A stretch of 40,460 nucleotides of DNA from a virus, in the UHGV virus genome UHGV-1390708; one strand, given 5' to 3'. The stretch's first letter is position 1, and every line of letters starts with the position of its first letter. A program made the translations under genes and the position numbers. Below the pieces are notes generated by a model that searched no databases, was not told the DNA's origin, and saw only the letters and a program-made list of their open reading frames with translations. Shown here piece after piece: positions 2,100-39,058 of this stretch.

Positions 2100-2256
2100 G
2101 GTGTTCTTTCAGTTCTTCAATTCGAATATTGGTTACGTCTGCATGTGCTATCTGCGCCCATATCATCCAGTGGTCGTAGCAGTCGTTGATGTTCTCCGCT
2201 TCGATAACTCTGTTGAATGGCTCTCCATTCCATTCACCTCTGACTCGGAAGTGCAT
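2089..2256 (-). CDS. Small conserved lambdoid early-left protein, 55 aa (MHFRVRGEWNGEPFNRVIEAENINDCYDHWMIWAQIAHADVTNIRIEELKEHQAA).
   Basis: Not in the track because it is under 60 aa. GGAGA lies 7 nt upstream of the ATG at 2256. The stop falls inside the terminator hairpin. Confidence 0.6.
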   Translation of the reverse strand: MHFRVRGEWNGEPFNRVIEAENINDCYDHWMIWAQIAHADVTNIRIEELKEHQAA

Positions 2257-2328
2257 TTATCATCTCCATAAAACAAAACTCGCCGTAGCGAGTTCAGATA
2301 AAAGAAATCCCCGCGAGTGCGAGGATTG

Positions 2329-2418
2329 TTATTGTCTTTTCTTCGTGCATTTGTCGCACTTTCGGCACCATCCAGATAGGCACATCCGTCCGCAATTAAC
2401 ACATATAGGCCACATCAT
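2329..2418 (-). CDS. Cys-rich mini-protein, 29 aa (MMWPICVNCGRMCLSGWCRKCDKCTKKRQ).
   Basis: Its ATG overlaps the stop of the upstream gene (ATGA). It has paired CxxC motifs. Confidence 0.35.
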   Translation of the reverse strand: MMWPICVNCGRMCLSGWCRKCDKCTKKRQ

Positions 2419-2696
2419 TTTTCCTCTTTTGGTTTATGAATCTGAATGGTCATGCCGCTTTGAGTGGTGACTACAATGACAGAACCAGGCTGAAGGCTGT
2501 TAAGATTGAATGCTTCGTAAAACGAATCCAAGGCCAGCGCTTTTTTATTCTTTCGGTTCCACCAACGCCATCCCTTGCTACAGGCTACACTGACAATCCA
2601 CTGCCCACTCCTGTAAGCCATATAAAACCAGATGAGCAAAACCTGAAGGAATGCTATCCAGTCAATAATCGTATATTTCGCGAAGGAGTCCATCAC
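2415..2696 (-). CDS. Hypothetical single-pass membrane protein, 93 aa.
   Basis: ATGA overlap with the upstream gene. Hydrophobic segment WIAFLQVLLIWFYMAY. Confidence 0.6.
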   Translation of the reverse strand: MMDSFAKYTIIDWIAFLQVLLIWFYMAYRSGQWIVSVACSKGWRWWNRKNKKALALDSFYEAFNLNSLQPGSVIVVTTQSGMTIQIHKPKEEK

Positions 2697-3550
2697 TTCA
2701 CCTCCTGCTGCGGTGCTGCTGGCATTTCACGCCAGTGCGTAACTGAGTGCGGATCCGGATATTCGGTGCCATCATCCCAGCGATTGCCATTCCACATTGC
2801 AGACCACATCTCACCGTCTTCATACATGACCATTACCGGAATTAACTTATCCGGCATTCGCTCACTACAGCTTATCCAACCATCCGGAGTTACCGGAACT
2901 TGCGGAATGGCTGTCTGCTCTCGAACGTCATTAGGCGCTATAGGTTCTGCTGCCAACTGACTGGCATATTTGTTAATGGTAACGATAAGCTCTTGCTCAG
3001 CCTCATCCAGACAATCACCGATACCTCGCCTGTCACCGTCAAAATCATCGAAATCGGCACGAATCTTGGCAACCTTCTGGATTGCGGACAACACCTCACT
3101 AGGAATTACCGGATAGTTGGTTGACGTTTCCGCGATTTCACGAAAATTATTGGTTGACGAATTCTTGTTTTCCCGAAAGTTTCCGGACTGAAACATGGCT
3201 GCGCGATAGGCGTTCCAGCCGACAGCTTTTCCGTGTTCAAACGCGCTGTCAAAGTCATCATCCATTTCCATCGCATCAGGCACAGATACCGTCTCTGGAG
3301 GGGCGGCGTAAAGCGGAGTTACGGTAATTTCGTATTCGTTAATATCTTCATCGCTGATAGATGCATCAAAGCTTAAAAAGCCAGGTCTACCGAGACCACG
3401 GGCCTGTGCGTCCTGGATGATGTACGCCACAGCCTCAGCTTCGAGCGATGCCAGTGCGATACGCGCCAGCTCCCTTTCTTCTGACGCGGTTGGCTCAGGA
3501 CCGTTGCCGAGGAAAATTTCTTGTGCGCGCTTTTTGGTAATTGTGCTCAT
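2693..3550 (-). CDS. DUF551-domain early protein, 285 aa.
   Basis: The C-terminal segment WISCSERMPD...THWREMP resembles DUF551. ATGA overlap with the upstream gene. Confidence 0.65.
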   Translation of the reverse strand: MSTITKKRAQEIFLGNGPEPTASEERELARIALASLEAEAVAYIIQDAQARGLGRPGFLSFDASISDEDINEYEITVTPLYAAPPETVSVPDAMEMDDDFDSAFEHGKAVGWNAYRAAMFQSGNFRENKNSSTNNFREIAETSTNYPVIPSEVLSAIQKVAKIRADFDDFDGDRRGIGDCLDEAEQELIVTINKYASQLAAEPIAPNDVREQTAIPQVPVTPDGWISCSERMPDKLIPVMVMYEDGEMWSAMWNGNRWDDGTEYPDPHSVTHWREMPAAPQQEVK

Positions 3551-4314
3551 GATGTCTCTCCTTTACCGGCTGCGGCGCGGTCTATGCGTTCAATTTCGGC
3601 CAGAATAAGTGCGCCAGCTTTCACAAGGTCACGACGCGGCCCAGATTGCTTCCACCAATCAGGAGCCCACGGCCAATGCGCTGGCGTTGAGAGGCCTTGA
3701 TTGTGTGCGTTAATCGCATAGCAAGCTGCAGCATCTGCCAGCTCACTGTTTTGATAGGCGTCGTCATGCTCCGATGTCCAACCCTCAACAGCCCTCTGCC
3801 GCTGACGTTCTGATATCACATCCAGAAGTGCAGGATTGAACGCCAGCACCTCCAGTTCAGCAATCCGCTTCTCTGCGGCTTCCAGCTTCTCGCGCATATC
3901 GTCAACGTACTCGACCAGAGATCCGCCAGCAGGAATTTCGCATTCCTCGACCAGTTGGAAGTAGATATCAGCTGCGGCCCGTGTGTTGCTATGCCTAGCG
4001 TCGCCCATCTCACCTTCACGAAGAGCATCGCGTTCGGCGGTAAGATTGGCTATTTTGCTGTCTTTGCCTTCCAGCTCAACGCGCAGCCTCCCAACCGTAA
4101 GCGCAATATCCTCGTTCTCCTGGTCGCGGCGTTTGATGTATTGCTGGTTTCTTTCACGTTCATCCAGCAATGCCAGCGCGATATCTGGCGAAAAGTGCTT
4201 CATAAAATCGTTAAGCGCATTAATTCGCTGATCGAAAGGCATTACAGGTGCTTCACCAGCAATTTTTGTTTTTTCAGCGATTTCACGAAGCTTTTGATAA
4301 TCAATCTTGCTCAC
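3547..4314 (-). CDS. Ead/Ea22-like early protein, 255 aa, with a GTG start.
   Basis: Coiled-coil N-terminal half. Conserved C-terminal segment EGWTSEHDD...WPW...RRDLVKAGALILAEIERIDR. GTGA overlap with the upstream gene. Confidence 0.55.
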   Translation of the reverse strand: MSKIDYQKLREIAEKTKIAGEAPVMPFDQRINALNDFMKHFSPDIALALLDERERNQQYIKRRDQENEDIALTVGRLRVELEGKDSKIANLTAERDALREGEMGDARHSNTRAAADIYFQLVEECEIPAGGSLVEYVDDMREKLEAAEKRIAELEVLAFNPALLDVISERQRQRAVEGWTSEHDDAYQNSELADAAACYAINAHNQGLSTPAHWPWAPDWWKQSGPRRDLVKAGALILAEIERIDRAAAGKGETS

Positions 4315-4781
4315 TGGTTGCCTCCTTTGCGAAGCTCTGCAGCGAAATATACAGCTGCGGAAACAATAGCTGCATGTCGGTACTCACCATCAGAAAATAA
4401 AGAATCTCCCTTAAGTGCATTGACGATACTCTGATGATTTTTTGCCAGCATCTCCACGCCCTGCGCCCGTACTTCAGCCAGAAAAGCATCGGTGGCTTGG
4501 GTTTCGATATCGTTAATTTCAGGAAGAATCTCTTCCCATGTAGCGATATCGCCATTCAAATGCCATCCGGCAATTCCACTGGAGTTATCCGCAACACTCC
4601 GAACGGCTTCAATAGTTTCATGCATTGCCGCATTCTCCGCTGCCAGCGCCGCGCACTTGGCCTCCGCTTCAGCAAATTTACGCACCAGATACTCAGCATT
4701 TGTTTCGTTAACCTTTAAATCACTTGGGATGCATTTACCTTTCAGGAATCCATCCATCTCAATTAGTGACATTTGTTTCAT
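4311..4781 (-). CDS. Hypothetical early protein, 156 aa from [11 protein letters not shown].
   Basis: The start was chosen at the ATGA overlap with the upstream small ORF. The track start at 4799 is the alternative. Confidence 0.6.
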
Positions 4782-9496: not shown

Positions 9497-9530
9497 AAAG
9501 AAAACCCGGCGCTGAGGCCGGGTGTTTTTA
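9497..9530 (-). terminator. Intrinsic terminator after the cI-linked moron. The hairpin has T-runs on both strands.
   Basis: CCCGGC-gctgag-GCCGGG. The minus strand continues TTTTCTTTTCC. Confidence 0.75.
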
Positions 9531-9824
9531 GTCTTTTCTTTTGCTTAGCATTTCGTCGATTTCTAAGTCAATACGATATTGATCTATTGCTTTTCTCTCG
9601 TTTGGGGTTGGTATTTTATACTGTTCAATTAGATCTGTTGTGTATTTTATTTCATCTAATGTGATTTTTATATCAGAGAGAATCTCTTTTATATCAATTA
9701 GATGCTCTTCTTCTTTTGCGCGATTAGAGCTATGTTCAATCACTTGAGATAGCTTTTTACTAATGCTTAGCAAAACAAAAAGAATGATGACCAAAACAAC
9801 AACAAAAACTATCAGAAATTCCAT
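9528..9824 (-). CDS. Membrane-anchored coiled-coil protein, 98 aa, family unknown. A lysogen-expressed moron in the rex position.
   Basis: GGAGGG Shine-Dalgarno sequence 3 nt before the ATG, 40 nt after the cI stop. N-terminal TM segment EFLIVFVVVLVIILFVLLSI followed by a charged helical region. Clearly AT-rich relative to the flanks. It has its own terminator. Confidence 0.75.
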   Translation of the reverse strand: MEFLIVFVVVLVIILFVLLSISKKLSQVIEHSSNRAKEEEHLIDIKEILSDIKITLDEIKYTTDLIEQYKIPTPNERKAIDQYRIDLEIDEMLSKRKD

Positions 9825-9864: not shown

Positions 9865-10572
9865 TTACCAACTATGAGACGACCAGAATACTCTGCCAAT
9901 AATCCTTACGGTTTCATGAAATTCATCTCTATCCATTACTTCATCCGGGTACTCTTCGCGATTTATTGATCTGATTATCACCGATGTAGGGGTGGCGATT
10001 AATGTTTTTACTCGTAACAAATCAGACTGGCAAATAGCGTAGGTTTTACCATCTCTGATGGTGGTATCTTGCGTGTTAACACCAACAACATCGCCATCGT
10101 GAAGCGTTGGTTCCATGCTTTGCCCTACAACCCTAACTAGCTTGGCTGATCTTTCAGATACTCCCATCTTTTTCAGATAGTGCTTTCTGAAAACCAAAGA
10201 GAACTCCGATGATTCCTCTAGCTCGCAGCTACCGCTTCCAGCTGAAAGCGAAACGTTAAGAAGAGGCAACGCAACAAACTCGTCATCGTTTCTTTTAATG
10301 TCTTCCCATACCACAGCTTTTAAAGATGACTCACGGACATTGGATGGTTCTTCATGTGCACCATCCCTCATTTCACCAATACCAGAACTAAGCCATTCAG
10401 GGCGCACTTTTAAAGCATTGGCTAATTCAACCATCTTGCGAGATCCGTTTGTTTTACCGGACGACATCTTCTGTATGGCTGGCTGAGATATTCCAACCAT
10501 GTCAGCAAGCTGTGATTGTGATACCCCTGCTGAGCTCATGGCTGCATTTAGTCTTTCTGCGAATGTTTTCAT
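9865..10572 (-). CDS. cI: CI-type prophage repressor (HTH_XRE plus S24 LexA-like autopeptidase), 235 aa from MKTFAERLN.
   Basis: HTH segment SQSQLADMVGISQPAIQKMSSG. Ala-Gly candidate cleavage site in LSAGSG. Ser in GQSMEPT and Lys in LRVK. The track start at 10602 is a TTG codon inside an operator. Confidence 0.85.
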   Translation of the reverse strand: MKTFAERLNAAMSSAGVSQSQLADMVGISQPAIQKMSSGKTNGSRKMVELANALKVRPEWLSSGIGEMRDGAHEEPSNVRESSLKAVVWEDIKRNDDEFVALPLLNVSLSAGSGSCELEESSEFSLVFRKHYLKKMGVSERSAKLVRVVGQSMEPTLHDGDVVGVNTQDTTIRDGKTYAICQSDLLRVKTLIATPTSVIIRSINREEYPDEVMDRDEFHETVRIIGRVFWSSHSW

Positions 10573-10584
10573 ACCCACAAATCT

Positions 10585-10650
10585 ATAACTACGGTTATCC
10601 AAAGTAAAATAACAAAGGTTATTGCTATTTTTTATAACTTGAGTTATCTT
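10585..10650. promoter_or_regulatory. OR: OR: three 14-bp operators ATAAC-N4-GTTAT interleaved with pR and a candidate pRM.
   Basis: Perfect sites at 10585-10598, 10609-10622 and 10634-10647. pR has -35 TTGCTA (10622-10627) and -10 TATCTT (10645-10650), 17-nt spacer. Candidate pRM -10 is TATAGA (minus strand, 10582-10587), 9 nt from the cI ATG. Confidence 0.75.
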
Positions 10651-33305: not shown

Positions 33306-35428
33306 TGAAAGTAACTGCAAACGGTAAGACATTTACCTTCCCTGATGGTACGAGCACGGAAGATATTGGCACCGCCATTGATGAGTATTTTGCTGGTCAG
33401 GCTGTTCAGCAACAAACAGTTAATCAGGACAATAATGCACCAACACGGGAAGAACCATCATTGATGCAACAAGCTGGCGATTGGCTCACTGGTGGTCAAA
33501 GTGCAGGGCAAATTGCAGAACAGGCTGGTCGTGGTCTGGTAAACATACCATTTGACGTATTGCAGGGTGGCGCAAGTCTGATTAATGCAATCAGCCAGGG
33601 GCTTGGTGGCCCCAAGGTTTTGGATGATGTTTATCGCCCTGTCGATCGACCGACAGACCCTTGGGCGCAAGCCGGTGAAACAATTGGTGGGTATCTCCTG
33701 CCAATTGGCACAGCGGCAAAAGTTGCTGGAGCGCCAGCAAAGCTCGCAGGAGACATCGGTTCCGCAGGAAACATGATTGCAGGTTCTCTTGCTGATGCTG
33801 CAAATCAGGAGGGTGATTTTGCACAAAATGCTGCCATTAACGGTGGTATCAATATTGGTGCTCAAGGCGTTCTTTCAGGTGTCGGGCGCGTTATTGCGCC
33901 AAGGGTTTCACAGGCTCTTGGTGGTGCAGCACTGAATTCTGCTAATGATGTTTCTAGGATGGCAAAGTCAGGTGCTGGGCGTCAGTCAATTGCCAGTCAG
34001 GCCGCTAATGTGTCCGAAGATGTAGCAAAAGCGGCTGAGTCTGCTGGAATTGATATAAACGCATTAACACCAGGAATGCGATCTGGAAGTCGTGGAATTG
34101 CACAAGCCGAAGGCGCATTGGCATCAACACCTGGAATTGTTCAGGACGCCCATCAGGCAGCATTTAACGAAATATCATCAAAGTTAAGTCGAAACCTTGA
34201 TGAATTTGGGGCCACATCTGGAACGGCATCAGAAAAAAGTGCGGCTATAAAACAAAGGATTCTTCAAAATCTTGATCAGATGAAGGATGCCGAGCGCGCG
34301 GCATGGGATGACGTGCGGTCAACAATGCCAAATCAAAAAGCAAGAATGCTAAATGGTAATGCCGTTATTCAGGCAGAGCGATCTGCTGGCATACCGCTTA
34401 CTCCTGAAATGAAACAGTTTGTTCAGGCAAACAATCAAGGTGGAGTAACATTTGATGGCATGAAAGCATGGAGAGCGAAATTTGCTGATGCGGAGCAAAA
34501 ATATAAGCGTAGCGGAGAGGCAAATGCGGCAAGGAGAGCAGGGGAAATACGCCGGGCAATTACTGATGATATGCGCACAATGGCGGAAAACGGCGGATTT
34601 CTTGATGACTGGCAGAAAGCTAATGATCTGTCTAAAGCGAGGTTATCAGCACAAGAGAGTGCAGAGTCTGTTTTCGGGCGTGATTTGGCAACAGATGCAC
34701 TGATTACGAATGGAGTAAAATCCCTTCAATCATCGTCAGCTAAAGGTCTTAATGGTCCTGCTGGATTCCATTCTATGATCCGCGCGCTGCCAGAATCAGA
34801 GCGTGTTCCTGCTATTTCATCAATGTTGCAAGATGCTATCTCGCATGGTGTACGTGGTGGCAAAGCTGATGCAGCAGGAATTAACCATATCGCAGAGATA
34901 CTGACTCCACAAAATGTAAAAGCCATTAGCCGATATTCCTCAGAGCTTGGAAGAATTGCTGATGCATATGGCACTCTTGCAAGAGCAGCAGTGAAACCTC
35001 AGCAGTATATTGAAAGAACAGGTAGAACTGCCAATGTACTACGCGATCTGGATGCTGGTTTATCCAACGTCACATCAACAGTGTTAAATGCAATTGCCAA
35101 TTCAACATCAGGTGCCATTGTTGGTGGCGCTGGAGGAGGCATTGCAGGCGCTGCCGCAGGTGCTTTAGTTGGCGCTGGGTTAAAAGGCGCTGTATCTAAA
35201 ATTGCCACCACACGTAGTGGTCGGTATGCGATAGAGAAAGCAGTTCAGGAAGCAACTAAAGCAGTAAGAGCAGGCGGAAGCAAAGAAGCATTAGCGGCGG
35301 CGGAACGCAGATTTATGGCAAATAAGGCCGCCGTAAAAGCAATACGCGAGGCACTAGGAAACGAAGAGTTCCAGCGTTTAGCAAGGGCTGGAATTGTGGC
35401 ATCGCTTAGCGGAATGGCACAGGAGTAA
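33302..35428 (+). CDS. Ejection protein, P22 gp16-like, 708 aa.
   Basis: Synteny. A Gly/Ala-rich membrane-active segment near the C-terminus. Confidence 0.7.
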
Positions 35429-35758
35429 TTAGTCATCCATGGATGGATTGAGCTTATCTCGTGTTGATGTGGCAATTTTACCAACATTTTTCAACCAAGA
35501 TTTTAAGAAGGATATGTCGTCCTTAATATCATGAATATCCTCATTCTTTATACGATCAACCTTATCCTCTAGGCTCTCTATAGAACGCTCAATGCTAGAC
35601 AGAGAGATTTTTAAGTCTCCTTGCTCACGTTCCAGTGAGGATTTGAGAGCACAATATTCGTTTTCTAGAATTCCTATTTTTTTTGTTAGAGAGTGCATTC
35701 GATACTCATACACCAAACTAGAAACGACTAATGCAGCCAACAGAAACCATTCAAGCAC
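35429..35758 (-). CDS. Membrane-anchored coiled-coil protein, 109 aa, in the sieA position. GTG start.
   Basis: AAGGAGG Shine-Dalgarno sequence 5 nt before the GTG at 35758. TM segment LEWFLLAALVVSSLVY followed by heptad-like charged helices. AT-rich. The longer track ORF would overlap the next gene. Confidence 0.6.
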   Translation of the reverse strand: MLEWFLLAALVVSSLVYEYRMHSLTKKIGILENEYCALKSSLEREQGDLKISLSSIERSIESLEDKVDRIKNEDIHDIKDDISFLKSWLKNVGKIATSTRDKLNPSMDD

Positions 35759-35788
35759 ACCAACCTCCTTAGTTTTGCGCAGGATACC

Positions 35789-36154
35789 ATGAAAAAAGTT
35801 AACATTGGAAACGTACCAAAAATGCTCGTTCCGCTCTTTGAGAGCGGTACAATTGTGTTTTGTAGAGACTTTCCAGAATGGCAACGCCTGCATCAAAAAC
35901 TTGGTGTGGACGTGCAGGACTCGGATGCCAACGGAGCGTCTCATACAATGAGCAGCGAGAATGGTGTTTTGCATGTGATAGGCGTGTTCAATGGCAAACT
36001 ATCTACTATTGCCCATGAGTGCGCTCACATGGCATTCGATATCTGCTCAAGGGTCGGTGTTGATGTTGAACCAGGAAGAGCCAACGAGACTTACTGCTAC
36101 TTAATGAGCAGGCTTGTTGAGTTCTGCGAGCGACATATCAAAAAGCCGGAGTGA
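35789..36154 (+). CDS. Mini HExxH zinc-metallopeptidase-like protein, 121 aa.
   Basis: GVFNGKLSTIAHECAHMAFD, with HECAH at 36014-28, resembles the ImmA/IrrE (M78) active-site segment. A downstream Glu (ANETYCY) is present. Confidence 0.5.
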   Translation: MKKVNIGNVPKMLVPLFESGTIVFCRDFPEWQRLHQKLGVDVQDSDANGASHTMSSENGVLHVIGVFNGKLSTIAHECAHMAFDICSRVGVDVEPGRANETYCYLMSRLVEFCERHIKKPE

Positions 36155-36167
36155 CCCGGCTTGATTA

Positions 36168-36347
36168 TTACTTTTTGCTGTCTGGAGTTCGCTTATCTAA
36201 TACCCAGCCATGACCTGGCTTTGTTGTTGGTGGAAGCCTTTCGTTGTCCTTGACGGTGGCAAAATTGTCTTTCTTACCGCCGCGCGGGCCAACTTCTTGG
36301 TATATTCCGCCGTTTTTTCCTGTGTTTTCACCTGGTTTTTTCGCCAT
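36168..36347 (-). CDS. YjzC-like small protein, 59 aa from MAKKPGENTGKNGGIYQEVGPRGG.
   Basis: GAGG Shine-Dalgarno sequence. The motif pattern PGE..P.NGIY.EVG..G is YjzC-like. It has its own promoter-like sequence and a terminator hairpin. Confidence 0.5.
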   Translation of the reverse strand: MAKKPGENTGKNGGIYQEVGPRGGKKDNFATVKDNERLPPTTKPGHGWVLDKRTPDSKK

Positions 36348-36427
36348 GATATACCTCAACATGCACTCGTTATTGGGCGATTAAATATTGATCTCATTTT
36401 ATGAGTAGTCAATATGGTCCAAAAAAG

Positions 36428-36462
36428 GCAAAAATTAACCCACCTTCAGGTGGGTTTTTTGT
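36428..36462. terminator. Bidirectional-looking hairpin terminator at the 3' end of the first Mnt-like gene.
   Basis: AACCCACC-ttca-GGTGGGTT flanked by T-runs on both strands. Confidence 0.6.
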
Positions 36463-36766
36463 TTAGCAGTTCTCTCAACTTTTCGTTCTGCTCTCTGAAC
36501 TTTTCCTGTATTTCTTTTTGCATGGCGATAACCTGGGCTTGAAGTTGAACTAGCGCATCAACATTTAGCGGAACCGAGACGCTGTTGATTTTATCTGCTA
36601 TTTCCCCGAGTGTATTTTCTGCATTCAAGGCATCTTCCAGTATCTGAACAATCTCTGAGTTCATTGATCTGCCGTTACGTTTGGCTCGTTCAGCTATAGC
36701 ATCCCGCATTCCTGCAGGAAGCCTGATATTGAACCTATCCATTTCATGACTAGGGAACTTGCTCAT
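36446..36766 (-). CDS. Mnt-like ribbon-helix-helix repressor with a C-terminal coiled coil, 106 aa.
   Basis: FNIRLPAGMRDAIAERAKRNGRSMNSEIVQILEDAL is an Arc/Mnt RHH signature. It is divergent from the Arc-like and ant genes. Confidence 0.75.
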   Translation of the reverse strand: MSKFPSHEMDRFNIRLPAGMRDAIAERAKRNGRSMNSEIVQILEDALNAENTLGEIADKINSVSVPLNVDALVQLQAQVIAMQKEIQEKFREQNEKLRELLNKKPT

Positions 36767-36808
36767 ATGACCTCAACGTAAAGATGTTCGCTAAACAATA
36801 GCACCAAC

Positions 36809-36850
36809 TTGACATCAAAATAAATGGTGTTAAATTGGTTCTAGAACCAA
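36809..36850 (+). promoter_or_regulatory. Pant-like promoter (-35 TTGACA at 36809-14, -10 TAAATT at 36831-36) with a 16-bp perfect palindromic operator, TTGGTTCTAGAACCAA (36835-36850).
   Basis: Read directly. The spacer is 16 nt, and the palindrome overlaps the -10 element and the start site. Confidence 0.65.
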
Positions 36851-36877
36851 GTTGGTATCATTATAGGAGGATTACTT

Positions 36878-37051
36878 ATGAAAGATGTGCTTTACACAGG
36901 TCGTAAAAGTCAAAGTTTTCAGCTTCGTTTGCCAGCGCGAATGAAGGAGGAGATTAGACGTGTTGCTGAAATGGATGGAATTTCTATCAACTCTGCGATT
37001 GTGCAGCGACTGGCTAAAAGCCTGAGAGAGGAAAGAGCTAATGCCCAGTAA
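36878..37051 (+). CDS. arc: Arc-like ribbon-helix-helix repressor, 57 aa (under 60 aa, so absent from the track).
   Basis: MKDVLYTGRKSQSFQLRLPARMKEEIRRVAEMDGISINSAIVQRLAKSLREERANAQ. AGGAGG Shine-Dalgarno sequence upstream. Confidence 0.75.
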   Translation: MKDVLYTGRKSQSFQLRLPARMKEEIRRVAEMDGISINSAIVQRLAKSLREERANAQ

Positions 37052-37120
37052 AAATAGTGAAGCCCAGCAGTGCGCGAACACAAACTGGGCCTCTATGTCA
37101 GTAACCGTATGCAAGGAAAC
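37052..37120 (-). ncRNA. Candidate sar-like antisense RNA covering the ant ribosome-binding site.
   Basis: Minus-strand promoter with -35 TTGTAA (37148-53) and -10 TATTCA (37126-31), 16-nt spacer. The hairpin GCCCAG...CTGGGC (37062-37090) is followed on the minus strand by a T-rich run. Confidence 0.4.
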
Positions 37121-37124
37121 TAAC

Positions 37125-37751
37125 ATGAATATTGTAGCAAAATCAGATTACAACTTCCACGGAGTTGAGTTGGTGCCCACCCGTGATATGCATGGTGTTT
37201 GGTTTACATCATCTAATATTGCATCTGCACTTAAATACGCAAATAGTCGTGCAGTAACAATGATTTATAACAAGTATAGCGATGAGTTTAGCGCCGGAAT
37301 GACTCAGGTACTCGAAGTGAGTACCTCAGGAAATTATCGCAAAAAAGTGCGAGTTTTCTCACTACGCGGTGCCCACCTAATCGCGATGTTTGCTCGCACT
37401 CCGGTAGCCAAAGAGTTCCGCCGCTGGGTGCTGGATATTTTGGATCGGCAGGCAGAATGCTCACCGATTGCAAAACAGTTTACTGACGAAGAACTGGTTA
37501 ATCTCTGCTACTTACAATTGTGGATGGAGAAGAGTCAACAAATGTGCAAACACATCTACCCAGGAATGAAGCAAATTGGTTCTGAGCTTTCAGGAAGGAT
37601 TTACGATATTGCATATGAGACTCGCTACATGTCAGAAGAAACCAAGAAATCACTTCTTCGTGAAATGAAGAATCTTGATACCAACAATTTTGTCGTAAAG
37701 AACGCTCAGCCAATACTGGCAAAACTGCGCGGCGAGGAATGGATTCATTGA
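37125..37751 (+). CDS. ant: Antirepressor with a Bro-N domain, 208 aa from MNIVAKSDY.
   Basis: FHGVELVPTRDMHGVWFTSSNIASALKY...LRGAHLIAMFARTPVAKEFRRWVLDIL is Bro-N. AAGGA Shine-Dalgarno sequence. Confidence 0.75.
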   Translation: MNIVAKSDYNFHGVELVPTRDMHGVWFTSSNIASALKYANSRAVTMIYNKYSDEFSAGMTQVLEVSTSGNYRKKVRVFSLRGAHLIAMFARTPVAKEFRRWVLDILDRQAECSPIAKQFTDEELVNLCYLQLWMEKSQQMCKHIYPGMKQIGSELSGRIYDIAYETRYMSEETKKSLLREMKNLDTNNFVVKNAQPILAKLRGEEWIH

Positions 37752-37770
37752 TTGGTGCGCCGGACGGCGC

Positions 37771-37801
37771 AAAAAGAAAACCGCCAGTGTGCTGCTGGCG
37801 G
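37771..37801 (-). terminator. Minus-strand-oriented hairpin plus T-run between the two ant-like genes.
   Basis: The minus strand reads CCGCCAG-cagcaca-CTGGCGG followed by TTTTCTTTTT. Confidence 0.4.
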
Positions 37802-37839
37802 CCTATGTCACACCCTTACTACCACATAAGGAATGCCTA

Positions 37840-38565
37840 ATGACTTTTAAGAATGTAGCAAACATCGGATCCGTTGTCACGGATAAAACCATTGACAGCC
37901 AAAGTCTTCTGATGATGGTTAATGAAGCTCGCAAGTTATGTGGAGAGCCATCAGTACGTAACAACAAATTCATCGAGAAAATTGAGGATGAATTGGAGGG
38001 CGAGACCTACACAAAAAGTGTAGGTCGGAAAAACGGGGCTGACATTGATGTTATCTCCATGACTATCAAGCAGGCGCTTCGTGTTGCTGCTCGCGAATCT
38101 AAAGCAGTTCGCCGAACACTTGTAGACAAACTTGAAAGTATGCAGGAAGCACACATTAAAAGCGGTAAATCAGCGAGTGGACTTGTTGAGTATCGTCAAG
38201 CGCGAACATTGAAAATGACGGTTGAAGCTGTTACCAATCTGTTCGATCTGATGCCAAATCTTGCGCCTGAGGCAAAGCAGACTGCGGCAGCAAGCATAAT
38301 CAACCCGATCGTTGGTTTTAATGCAATACCTCTTCCAGCAATAGAAGAGCATTACTACTCAGCAGGGGAGGTTGCAGAGCAGCTTGGAGTAACGGCCAAC
38401 AAGATTGGTCGCATTGCTAACGCAAACAACCTCAAAACTGAGCAGTACGGCAAGTTCTTCCTAGATAAATCTGCGCATTCCAGCAAACAGGTAGAGGCGT
38501 TCCGCTACAATGCGGAAGGTGTTAAAGCACTACAACACCTGATTCATGGGAGTAATGTTGCATAA
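37840..38565 (+). CDS. Second antirepressor-like / phage regulatory protein, 241 aa from MTFKNVANIG.
   Basis: AAGGA Shine-Dalgarno sequence. The C-terminal YYSAGEVAEQLGVTANKIGRIANANNL is HTH-like. The family assignment is uncertain. Confidence 0.4.
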   Translation: MTFKNVANIGSVVTDKTIDSQSLLMMVNEARKLCGEPSVRNNKFIEKIEDELEGETYTKSVGRKNGADIDVISMTIKQALRVAARESKAVRRTLVDKLESMQEAHIKSGKSASGLVEYRQARTLKMTVEAVTNLFDLMPNLAPEAKQTAAASIINPIVGFNAIPLPAIEEHYYSAGEVAEQLGVTANKIGRIANANNLKTEQYGKFFLDKSAHSSKQVEAFRYNAEGVKALQHLIHGSNVA

Positions 38566-38786
38566 TGGCAAAGAAAAAATATGGCATTATGCCGCCAAGA
38601 ATCAAAGGAAGAGCCAGGGTAAAAGGCGATGCTGGAAGGTATCACATTCTTGGAGTTCTGTGGCATGAGAGAGCTTTAATTTTAAGTAGACCTCATGGGT
38701 ACATTGAAAAGGTATCTATAGATAGAGTAGAGATTCTTCCCCTTACACCTGAAGAAGAAGAAACGTACGGACTTTTTGATAACTAA
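38565..38786 (+). CDS. Hypothetical basic protein, 73 aa.
   Basis: ATAATG junction with the preceding gene. A terminator follows. Confidence 0.5.
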   Translation: MAKKKYGIMPPRIKGRARVKGDAGRYHILGVLWHERALILSRPHGYIEKVSIDRVEILPLTPEEEETYGLFDN

Positions 38787-38793
38787 CCAACTA

Positions 38794-38820
38794 AACCCGC
38801 TTAATCGCGGGTTTTTTCTT
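38794..38820 (+). terminator. Intrinsic terminator at the convergent junction with mnt.
   Basis: AACCCGC-ttaatc-GCGGGTT followed by TTTTTCTTTT. Confidence 0.7.
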
Positions 38821-39058
38821 TTCTAAGGATATCAGCCACAACTTCTTTTACTCGTTCCGAGATTAATGAGGCCAGCCTCTCTTCTTCATCACGATACCCG
38901 CTTACAGGTGATGGTTTGGAGAGTGATTCTTCCATCGTAGCCACAATTTCGGAATTGATAGACCTGTTATTCATTTTTGCACGTTGCTTAATCTTAGCGT
39001 GCAACTCGTGCGTAAGCCTCAAGTGGAACTGCGCCTCATCGTATTTGCTGTACATCAT
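38801..39058 (-). CDS. mnt: Mnt repressor (P22-type RHH), 85 aa from MMYSKYDEAQFHLRL.
   Basis: RSINSEIVATMEESLSKPSPVSGYRDEEERLA closely parallels P22 Mnt ...SKPSPVTGYRNDAERLA as I recall it. GGTGAGG Shine-Dalgarno sequence. Confidence 0.8.
   Translation of the reverse strand: MMYSKYDEAQFHLRLTHELHAKIKQRAKMNNRSINSEIVATMEESLSKPSPVSGYRDEEERLASLISERVKEVVADILRKEKTRD

Follow-up and report, generated by a model that had tools for sequence, protein, structure and literature searches.

Genes and signals between gene 16 and mnt

The virus genome UHGV-1390708 (40,460 nucleotides; hereafter the window) is a complete P22-like (Lederbergvirus-type) Escherichia coli prophage, with CUS-3 as the closest relative of its late region. 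This report concerns the stretch at 35429–36462, between gene 16 and the immI region, where three small genes lie in alternating orientation. They are the catalogued genes hkcB, hkcC and orf59a of P22-like phages, and their arrangement is already known. A first-pass annotation of the same DNA had described them as one three-gene accessory island replacing the sieA gene of P22. In the reading that we consider probable, the stretch instead holds two independent accessory modules: a cassette (hkcB) in the sieA slot and a convergent hkcC/orf59a pair. The features are as follows.

35429–35758, minus strand: hkcB, open reading frame (ORF) with a GTG start, 109 amino acids (aa); occupies the sieA slot
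35432–35557, minus strand: conserved C-terminal module of HkcB, residues 68–109, common to the CUS-3/epsilon34-type 'hkcB' proteins
35756–35789, minus strand: candidate portable expression signal of the slot, made up of an extended -10, 5′ leader, Shine–Dalgarno (SD) sequence and GTG; overlaps the hkcC ATG
35789–36154, plus strand: hkcC, 121 aa, with HECAH at residues 76–80 and E100; co-oriented with the late operon
36143–36162, no strand assigned: hairpin terminator (HK620 'tORF59A'; P22 'mnt terminator'), from a terminator scan and the HK620 and P22 annotations
36168–36347, minus strand: orf59a (HK620 hkcD), encoding a 59-aa basic YjzC-like protein
36384–36412, minus strand: predicted orf59a promoter, TTGACT (36407–36412), 17 nucleotides (nt), AATATT (36384–36389)
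36437–36456, no strand assigned: bidirectional terminator tMNT, dividing mnt from the orf59a moron, from a terminator scan of both strands and the HK620 annotation

The closest known counterpart is phage HK620, where these three genes occur with identical order and orientation, the same abutting stop codons of gene 16 and hkcB, and the same terminators. Window positions 35300–36462 match it at 97.3% DNA identity (megablast), most of the codon differences being synonymous. The HK620 record (AF335538, 33313–34231) annotates hkcB, hkcC, a sequence that "may encode HkcD, similar to P22", and the terminators tORF59A and tMNT; hkcD of HK620 is orf59a of P22. HK620 differs from the window in that it has only remnants of mnt and ant, whereas the window keeps a full mnt-arc-ant region and a second antirepressor-like gene. 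In addition, gp16 of the window is of the CUS-3/epsilon34 type and not of the HK620 type.

Villafane et al. (PMC2629481) named the interval between genes 16 and 9 the "ant moron" and described it as a region in rapid flux; hkcB, hkcC and 59a were listed there as parts of it 'of unknown function', with a homologue of hkcB in epsilon34. The locus itself therefore adds nothing new, as its genes have been named since the HK620 genome of 2001 and the variability of the region was described in 2008. What is added is the picture of a cassette slot, an invariant zincin signature in HkcC, and a conserved hkcC/orf59a module, which together provide testable handles on three genes long labelled "unknown function", two of them shared with P22 itself, the best-studied podovirus.

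All three ORFs of the first-pass annotation are present with the coordinates, strands and lengths that it gave, and all fall in conserved phage protein families (hkcB, phrog_5962, E 5e-61; hkcC, phrog_1365; orf59a, phrog_3202, E 7e-31). The start of hkcB is the GTG at 35756–35758, with AAGGAGG at 35764–35770 five nt upstream. A 181-aa version of the hkcB ORF is an upstream over-extension, ruled out by the homologue starts at this GTG and by the position of the ribosome-binding site (RBS); a 64-aa version of orf59a is ruled out by the same two kinds of evidence. The stop codons of gene 16 (TAA, 35426–35428) and hkcB (TTA, 35429–35431) do abut, as had been noticed, and the DNA between gene 16 and immI is indeed accessory and non-virion. 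The description of the region as AT-rich applies to hkcB (37.3% G+C) but not to hkcC (46.4%) or orf59a (47.2%), which are close to the whole window (47.8%); composition deviates for hkcB alone. An Rfam scan of 35000–39000 gave nothing but terminator-like sroH fragments, far under threshold.

The sieA slot and its cassette hkcB

Window positions 35756–36462 match P22 and about 70 relatives at approximately 98% DNA identity, and the P22 homology begins exactly at the sieA/hkcB start codon and ends at 36462. P22 has in common with the window hkcC, orf59a, the promoter/RBS segment, both terminators and the location between genes 16 and 9. In place of the 109-aa HkcB (phrog_5962) of the window, P22 encodes the 164-aa multi-pass SieA (phrog_7745), and the two sequences are unrelated. 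Since P22 carries both hkcC and orf59a, and since its homology starts at the hkcB/sieA start codon, the difference between the two phages is a cassette swap beside a conserved two-gene module. The assignment of the genes to the sieA position thus stands for hkcB, which sits exactly where P22 has sieA, but not for hkcC and orf59a, which P22 also possesses.

A second joint lies inside hkcB. CUS-3/epsilon34-like DNA (96%) extends from gene 16 (window 33302) to 35550, which is 122 nt into the 3′ end of hkcB, and beyond that point HK620-type DNA supplies the rest, with HK620-like coverage from 35300 to 36462. The meeting of the two DNA types near 35550 indicates a recombination joint within the gene. 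The comparison of genomes at the junction of gp16 and mnt, which the first-pass annotation had proposed as a check, thus places the boundaries at the hkcB start codon, at the joint near 35550, and at the mnt terminator, where tMNT forms the right edge of the HK620/P22-like block (the megablast match ends at 36462).

These boundaries bear on the explanation that an accessory or defence island of three genes, each with its own promoter and terminator, replaced sieA in one piece. We regard this as highly improbable, and the comparison of genomes already contradicts it. The genes are contiguous with alternating orientation, the block is bounded by gp16 and the mnt terminator, and HK620 has the same three genes together, all of which would fit a single insertion. 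However, P22 and dozens of its relatives, at about 98% DNA identity over the second and third genes, pair hkcC/orf59a with sieA or nine other cassettes and not with hkcB; homology breaks at the hkcB start codon and again inside hkcB; and hkcC has no promoter of its own that could be found. Furthermore, the full configuration over 35200–37100 occurs in only 4 of 5426 complete E. coli genomes, its separate pieces being common. NZ_OZ547164 is 99.3% identical to the window over that interval, and PGAP labels all three genes there "hypothetical protein".

The comparison of cassettes was based on 80 viral contigs from IMG/VR with HkcC at least 99% identical, in 76 of which the divergent gene upstream of hkcC was read. 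At the sieA slot, 76 loci hold 11 mutually unrelated cassette families:

161-aa lipoprotein, 16 loci
SieA, 12 loci
129-aa secreted protein, 10 loci
a second, different 109-aa transmembrane (TM)-plus-coiled-coil protein, 10 loci
75-aa membrane protein, 8 loci
HkcB, 7 loci
62-aa protein, 4 loci
106-aa protein, 3 loci
68-aa protein, 2 loci
99-aa protein, 2 loci
149-aa protein, 2 loci

In all 11, the N-terminus carries a lipobox, a signal peptide or a TM segment. Those that match PHROG each match a different one, the 149-aa family having no match, and SieA is the only family annotated with a function. Leavitt et al. (2024, PMC10883804) showed that SieA resides in the inner membrane, that it is both required and sufficient to stop P22-like phages from injecting their DNA, and that escape mutations map to gp16 and gp20. 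The slot therefore offers a ready-made panel of candidate exclusion proteins for the assays established with SieA.

The alleles of the slot are preceded by a common signal. TGGTATCCT, the extended -10 (TGgTATCCT), lies at 35781–35789 on the minus strand, with its leading T opposite the A of the start codon ATG of hkcC. This candidate element had been picked out in the first-pass annotation, and its conservation across divergent contexts speaks in its favour. The alleles share the leader ...cATGGTATCCTGCnnAAAACTAAGGAG, which usually runs on as GTTGGTGTG to the GTG start; in the most frequent allele the match ends right behind AAGGAG, and the extended -10 and the SD core are common to the alleles. 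The 34-nt segment at 35756–35789 is 100% conserved in many E. coli genomes and in prophages that have different cargo on both sides. In one UTI89-type prophage without hkcC (L007), identity to the window starts exactly at TGGTATCCT, a finding that supports the extended -10 and defines 35756–35789 as the portable unit. The slot in Morganella has a different sequence of the same design (TGtATAAT, SD, GTG start). The P22 record annotates a sieA promoter immediately adjacent to this signal, and in P22 the region is drawn as prophage-expressed. These comparisons identify the signal region with the sieA promoter annotated in P22 and suggest a portable leftward signal that serves whichever cassette is present.

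Two side observations were made at this signal. The L007 prophage (E. coli FDAARGOS_1298, 2153–4536) holds a 109-aa multi-pass membrane protein in the slot and, in place of hkcC/orf59a, genes for a 188-aa protein of unknown function, a YafO-family toxin and a ClpP-like protease. In the window, an imperfect 24-nt inverted repeat (71%) with the perfect core CCGCTCT-N3-AGAGCGG occupies 35814–35864, within the first 25 codons of hkcC (the conserved VPLFESG region) and just upstream of the leftward promoter. P22 has the same repeat, which could be a leftward terminator, an insulator, or incidental.

HkcB is 97–98% identical to the HkcB of HK620 and belongs to a narrow family of 26 clusters. Its architecture consists of an N-terminal hydrophobic anchor (MLEWFLLAALVVSSLVYEY), a helical or coiled-coil stalk, and a conserved C-terminal part of about 40 aa; in the family alignment, conservation is concentrated in these last residues (68–106, D68...S106). 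Beyond the hydrophobic segment, NCBIfam and Pfam give only weak, sub-threshold matches to coiled-coil families. A PADLOC match to DpdH (E 4.5e-4) covers the hydrophobic-plus-helical N-terminus and was treated as compositional. No positive residue precedes the hydrophobic segment and R, K and K follow it, a distribution that by the positive-inside rule points to an N-out/C-in topology; the stalk and the conserved C-terminal 40 aa would probably face the cytoplasm.

By position and analogy, HkcB is most likely a prophage-expressed, membrane-tethered protein of the exclusion type, given that SieA is the only characterised allele of the slot. HkcB and SieA types A–C (PMC10883804) share the slot and the leftward promoter/RBS/GTG signal, and both are small prophage-encoded proteins with one or more membrane segments and a conserved part predicted to face the cytoplasm. 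They differ in that SieA is a multi-pass protein of about 160–200 aa whereas HkcB has 109 aa and a single segment; moreover, HkcB has neither sequence homology to SieA nor the FxRYPxEAxxFNK motif described in that paper.

Several observations weigh against the exclusion assignment. The hydrophobic segment is borderline, with a Kyte–Doolittle hydropathy of 1.46 over 19 residues (KD19) and of 1.85 over 17 residues (KD17) in a close variant. The 'hkcB' proteins of epsilon34 and CUS-3 match only residues 17–109 of HkcB (55%, tblastn): the C-terminus is common to both types and the N-terminal half is different, that of the CUS-3/epsilon34 type not being clearly membrane-spanning. PADLOC gave no credible defence-family match for any of the three proteins, and a search of the literature gave no functional data on hkcB, hkcC, orf59a or YjzC. 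The exclusion or defence role suggested for the whole stretch is plausible for hkcB, by position, but finds no recognised defence family among the three genes.

It is also conceivable, if unlikely, that HkcB is another lysogenic-conversion or regulatory factor, such as a coiled-coil scaffold tethered to the membrane, a sensor for abortive infection, or a protein that modulates ejection or lysis by the phage itself, for which the slot would be just a convenient site of expression. The lack of similarity to SieA types A–C would be expected in that case, and the 11 cassette families are very heterogeneous, ranging from lipoproteins and periplasmic proteins to proteins with one to four TM segments; the same moron elsewhere carries the YafO toxin and ClpP-like genes. 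On the other hand, the only characterised occupant is an exclusion protein, and all occupants are envelope proteins with the same prophage-type signal beside the genes for the ejection proteins.

The first-pass annotation had also pointed to a second TM-plus-helical protein beside the cI gene, and this was borne out. The ORF at 9528–9824 (minus strand, 30% G+C, phrog_18389) encodes a protein of 98 aa, whose N-terminal segment is very hydrophobic (KD19 3.67) and whose tail is helical, and lies directly downstream of a cI-type (S24/HTH) repressor gene (9865–10602), like rexAB of lambda. It is a second prophage-expressed membrane moron of this phage. A relation of HkcB to this protein, or to the other 109-aa TM-plus-coiled-coil cassette, was considered and rejected, as neither aligns with it.

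HkcC, Orf59a and their pairing

HkcC of the window is 100% identical in amino acid sequence to the P22 and HK620 proteins. A word-indexed search found only 32 relatives; HMMER, run against 1.84 billion representatives, detected 550 clusters at 50% identity. Nearly all members are stand-alone proteins of 105–140 aa, and all 56 sampled relatives match phrog_1365, "unknown function". Across these 56, down to 22% identity, no columns but H76, E77, H80 and E100 are invariant. In the AlphaFold2 (AF2) model (predicted local distance difference test, pLDDT, 89), a four-stranded sheet is followed by the helix 71–88, which contains HECAH (76–80), a loop, and a helix (100–116) whose first residue is E100, 20 residues after H80. 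The model thus has the HExxH motif on a helix and, on the following one, a glutamate at the distance in sequence (about 18–25 residues) of the third zinc ligand of gluzincins. No signal peptide is present. HkcC therefore appears to be a cytoplasmic HExxH...E zinc metallopeptidase-like protein of about 120 aa, for which protease activity is predicted from the motif and the model, and it would belong to a large phage family of minimal zincin-like proteins embedded in late operons.

Compared to known zincins of the gluzincin type, HkcC has the same predicted arrangement of an HExxH helix after a beta-sheet and a Glu on the next helix. Classical gluzincins are, however, much larger, and the similarity of HkcC to solved zincins is below significance: Foldseek gave SPRTN (6mdx) as the top PDB match at E 0.11, a PDB profile search gave myroilysin at E 0.14, and neither sequence nor profile searches of the PDB found a significant match to a solved peptidase. 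SprT-like Pfam matches occur in 17 of the 56 relatives, all sub-threshold (best E 1e-4), and no other family recurs. SprT and SPRTN use a third His rather than a Glu. Two further results count against the peptidase assignment: HkcC of the window has no Pfam match, the SprT-like PF10263 threshold not being reached, and hhalign of the HkcC family with E. coli SprT/YggI gave 14.7% probability with HExxH not aligned.

If HExxH were incidental, HkcC could be a catalytically inert structural or virion-associated protein; the want of a significant match to any solved peptidase and the location of the gene among virion genes in several phages would agree with this. We consider it highly improbable, as the invariance of H, E, H and of the Glu 20 residues on, and of nothing else, is the pattern expected of a catalytic zinc site and not of a structural protein, and hkcC is missing from many P22-like phages that have the same virion.

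Paralogues of HkcC (28–40% identity) are encoded between the lysis cassette and dec/terminase in ST64T (L003, 2501–2890), L, epsilon34 and the mEp021 group (L004). Some P22-like phages, including Phi75, UAB_Phi20, ST160 and SE1, have two copies of hkcC, and relatives are also found in virulent N4-like Klebsiella phages (KP8, L005).

The expression of hkcC can be judged from its surroundings. Neither a promoter scan nor a comparison of upstream contexts found a promoter of its own. The gene is co-oriented with the late operon; its relatives lie inside late operons, between tail genes in siphovirus-type prophages, and many of them come straight after a gene of an operon or after a terminator hairpin. 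With no promoter detected and with this orientation, hkcC is probably made only when antiterminated late transcription passes through it. Two points weigh against late-only expression. First, it rests on a promoter not being found. Second, a 10/12 promoter-like site, TTGAGA-17-TAGAAT, lies inside hkcB on the plus strand (35643–35671) and is directed toward hkcC; this is the best plus-strand match of the region and the only candidate for late-independent expression. The site is probably due to chance, because it lies in AT-rich cassette DNA that other alleles lack.

The third gene, orf59a, encodes a protein that differs from P22 Orf59a by one substitution. Its match to Pfam YjzC (PF14168) reaches 19.4 bits (E 0.0013), under the cut-off of 25. 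Its 108 homologues found with phmmer grade into PF14168-positive proteins (P0140, E 4e-18; P0156–P0166, E 1e-6 to 5e-4), and several are named 'YjzC family protein' in UniRef. Among them are copies on chromosomes and in prophages of Morganella, Providencia, Xenorhabdus and Salmonella bongori as well as metagenomic copies, and the motif PG..G..Y.E.GPRGG...LPPT..G is invariant in the family alignment. The AF2 model (pLDDT 84) is a three-stranded beta-sheet with no significant structural neighbour, and sequence and profile searches of the PDB were null. The structure prediction and remote-homology searches that had been suggested for these proteins thus yielded a zincin-like model for HkcC and a beta-sheet model for Orf59a, but no significant solved relative for either.

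Unlike hkcC, orf59a carries signals of its own. The promoter TTGACT-17-AATATT scores 9/12 in the promoter scan, and TTGACT or TTGAAA-17-AATATT precedes orf59a in P22, Rosenbergiella, Morganella and other viral contigs with differing spacer sequences, which is good comparative evidence that the promoter is real. The palindrome CTCAT-TTT-ATGAG (36393–36405), noted earlier as part of this element, was rejected as an operator: it is present, but within the variable spacer of the promoter and not in relatives, and a 5+5 repeat is at chance level. The terminator hairpin that had been placed at the 3′ end of the HExxH gene was found at 36143–36162. It spans the stop codon of hkcC, codes for the last residues of HkcC (KKPE), and is conserved in divergent contexts. 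The hairpin ends orf59a transcripts; on the plus strand its T-run is poor.

With a conserved promoter, gene and terminator, orf59a is a textbook moron, and its product is presumably made in the lysogen. It resembles the morons of lambdoid phages (sensu Hendrix; PMC2629481) in having its own promoter and terminator, in its place within a late operon, here in antisense, and in being present or absent among syntenic relatives (69 of 80 loci; hkcB, 7 of 76). The earlier view that each gene has its own signals can accordingly be kept for orf59a and, in the form of the conserved extended -10, for hkcB, but not for hkcC, for which no promoter was found. In contrast to the usual lambdoid moron, orf59a shows a stable coupling to a convergent late-strand gene without a detected promoter, hkcC, and the 3′ end of that gene runs into the terminator of orf59a.

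A hairpin was also seen in the leaders of orf59a (window about 36350–36383, minus strand), just downstream of the -10. It has a stem of 4–8 bp and a loop of 5–8 nt, often with AAT, and stem sequences differ between the lineages compared (L002, L010, L012, L015, L101, L110, L112). It is the minimum free energy structure in 7 of 9 leaders (z down to -2.8); a mismatch weakens the window copy, and L009 has no hairpin. This element may be a 5′ stabiliser or a regulator-binding site.

Several observations indicate that hkcC and orf59a travel together. An adjacent convergent orf59a is present at 69 of the 80 close hkcC loci and at 16 of 32 more diverse ones (14 of 25 viral and 2 of 7 genome loci, one of these in Pasteurellaceae); conversely, hkcC is next door in 80 of 80 viral loci seeded with orf59a. 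The pair adjoins mnt in Morganella P22-like prophages, and it lies between the tail-chaperone and tape-measure genes in siphovirus-type prophages of Rosenbergiella and Klebsiella oxytoca. In 11 paired loci, with identity down to 41% for HkcC and 64% for Orf59a, the identity matrices of the two proteins correlate (Mantel r 0.73, permutation p ~6e-4). This stable coupling across unrelated phage types offers a first lead on the function of YjzC-like proteins. Neither gene is strictly bound to the other, which weighs against a functional unit: ST64T-type paralogues of hkcC are without orf59a, and orf59a stands alone in S. bongori and in environmental contigs. A type II toxin–antitoxin pair was considered and rejected on the basis of the convergent genes, the shared terminator, and the lack of any DNA-binding domain or PADLOC match.

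A serious alternative, to which we give somewhat less than an even chance, is that HkcC and Orf59a are functionally unrelated neighbours, the orf59a moron sharing a terminator with hkcC and hitch-hiking with it. HkcC would then act during late growth on a host or rival-phage protein (anti-defence), or on DNA-bound proteins as SprT/SPRTN do. The occurrence of either gene without the other agrees with this alternative, as do the HkcC relatives in virulent N4-like phages, which have no lysogeny, and the weak links to SprT-like proteins and SPRTN; correlated divergence can also result from close physical linkage by itself. Against it, the same convergent geometry, with stop codons about 5–20 nt apart, is kept down to 41% HkcC identity and in podovirus- and siphovirus-type prophages of several families, and mosaic phage genomes rarely keep unrelated neighbours joined for that long.

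A tentative model and the adjoining immunity genes

In the model that we propose, the hkcB cassette would be expressed in the lysogen from the leftward extended -10/AAGGAGG/GTG signal (GTG in most alleles), and HkcB, anchored in the inner membrane, would hinder superinfecting phages as their DNA enters, or at a similar step in the envelope. Orf59a would be made in the lysogen from its own sigma-70 promoter. Upon induction of the late operon, antiterminated read-through would produce HkcC and run antisense through orf59a, and HkcC might, speculatively, also remove Orf59a.

In its boldest form the model gives two readings, which we think unlikely. First, hkcC/orf59a would be a new two-gene 'toggle' moron: a YjzC-like effector made constitutively in the prophage would be shut off by late HkcC through antisense read-through and proteolysis, so that the prophage's own protective or host-modifying factor spares its own lytic growth. 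Second, the sieA slot would be a plug-and-play site for blocking entry, in which a 34-nt promoter/RBS serves a dozen mechanistically different entry-blocking proteins and HkcB represents a so far uncharacterised class that acts from the cytoplasmic side.

The match to P22-like DNA ends at tMNT, and the immI regulator beyond it differs in type from that of P22. The gene at 36446–36766 (minus strand, phrog_1287) encodes a Mnt-like Arc-family repressor of 106 aa, compared to 83 aa for P22 Mnt, with a long C-terminal helical extension. After arc, two antirepressor-type genes lie in tandem on the plus strand. The product of the first (37041–37751) combines Bro-N with the C-terminal domain of the P22 antirepressor, and the second (37789–38565), which starts at a GTG, encodes a protein that matches phrog_1726, 'anti-repressor'.

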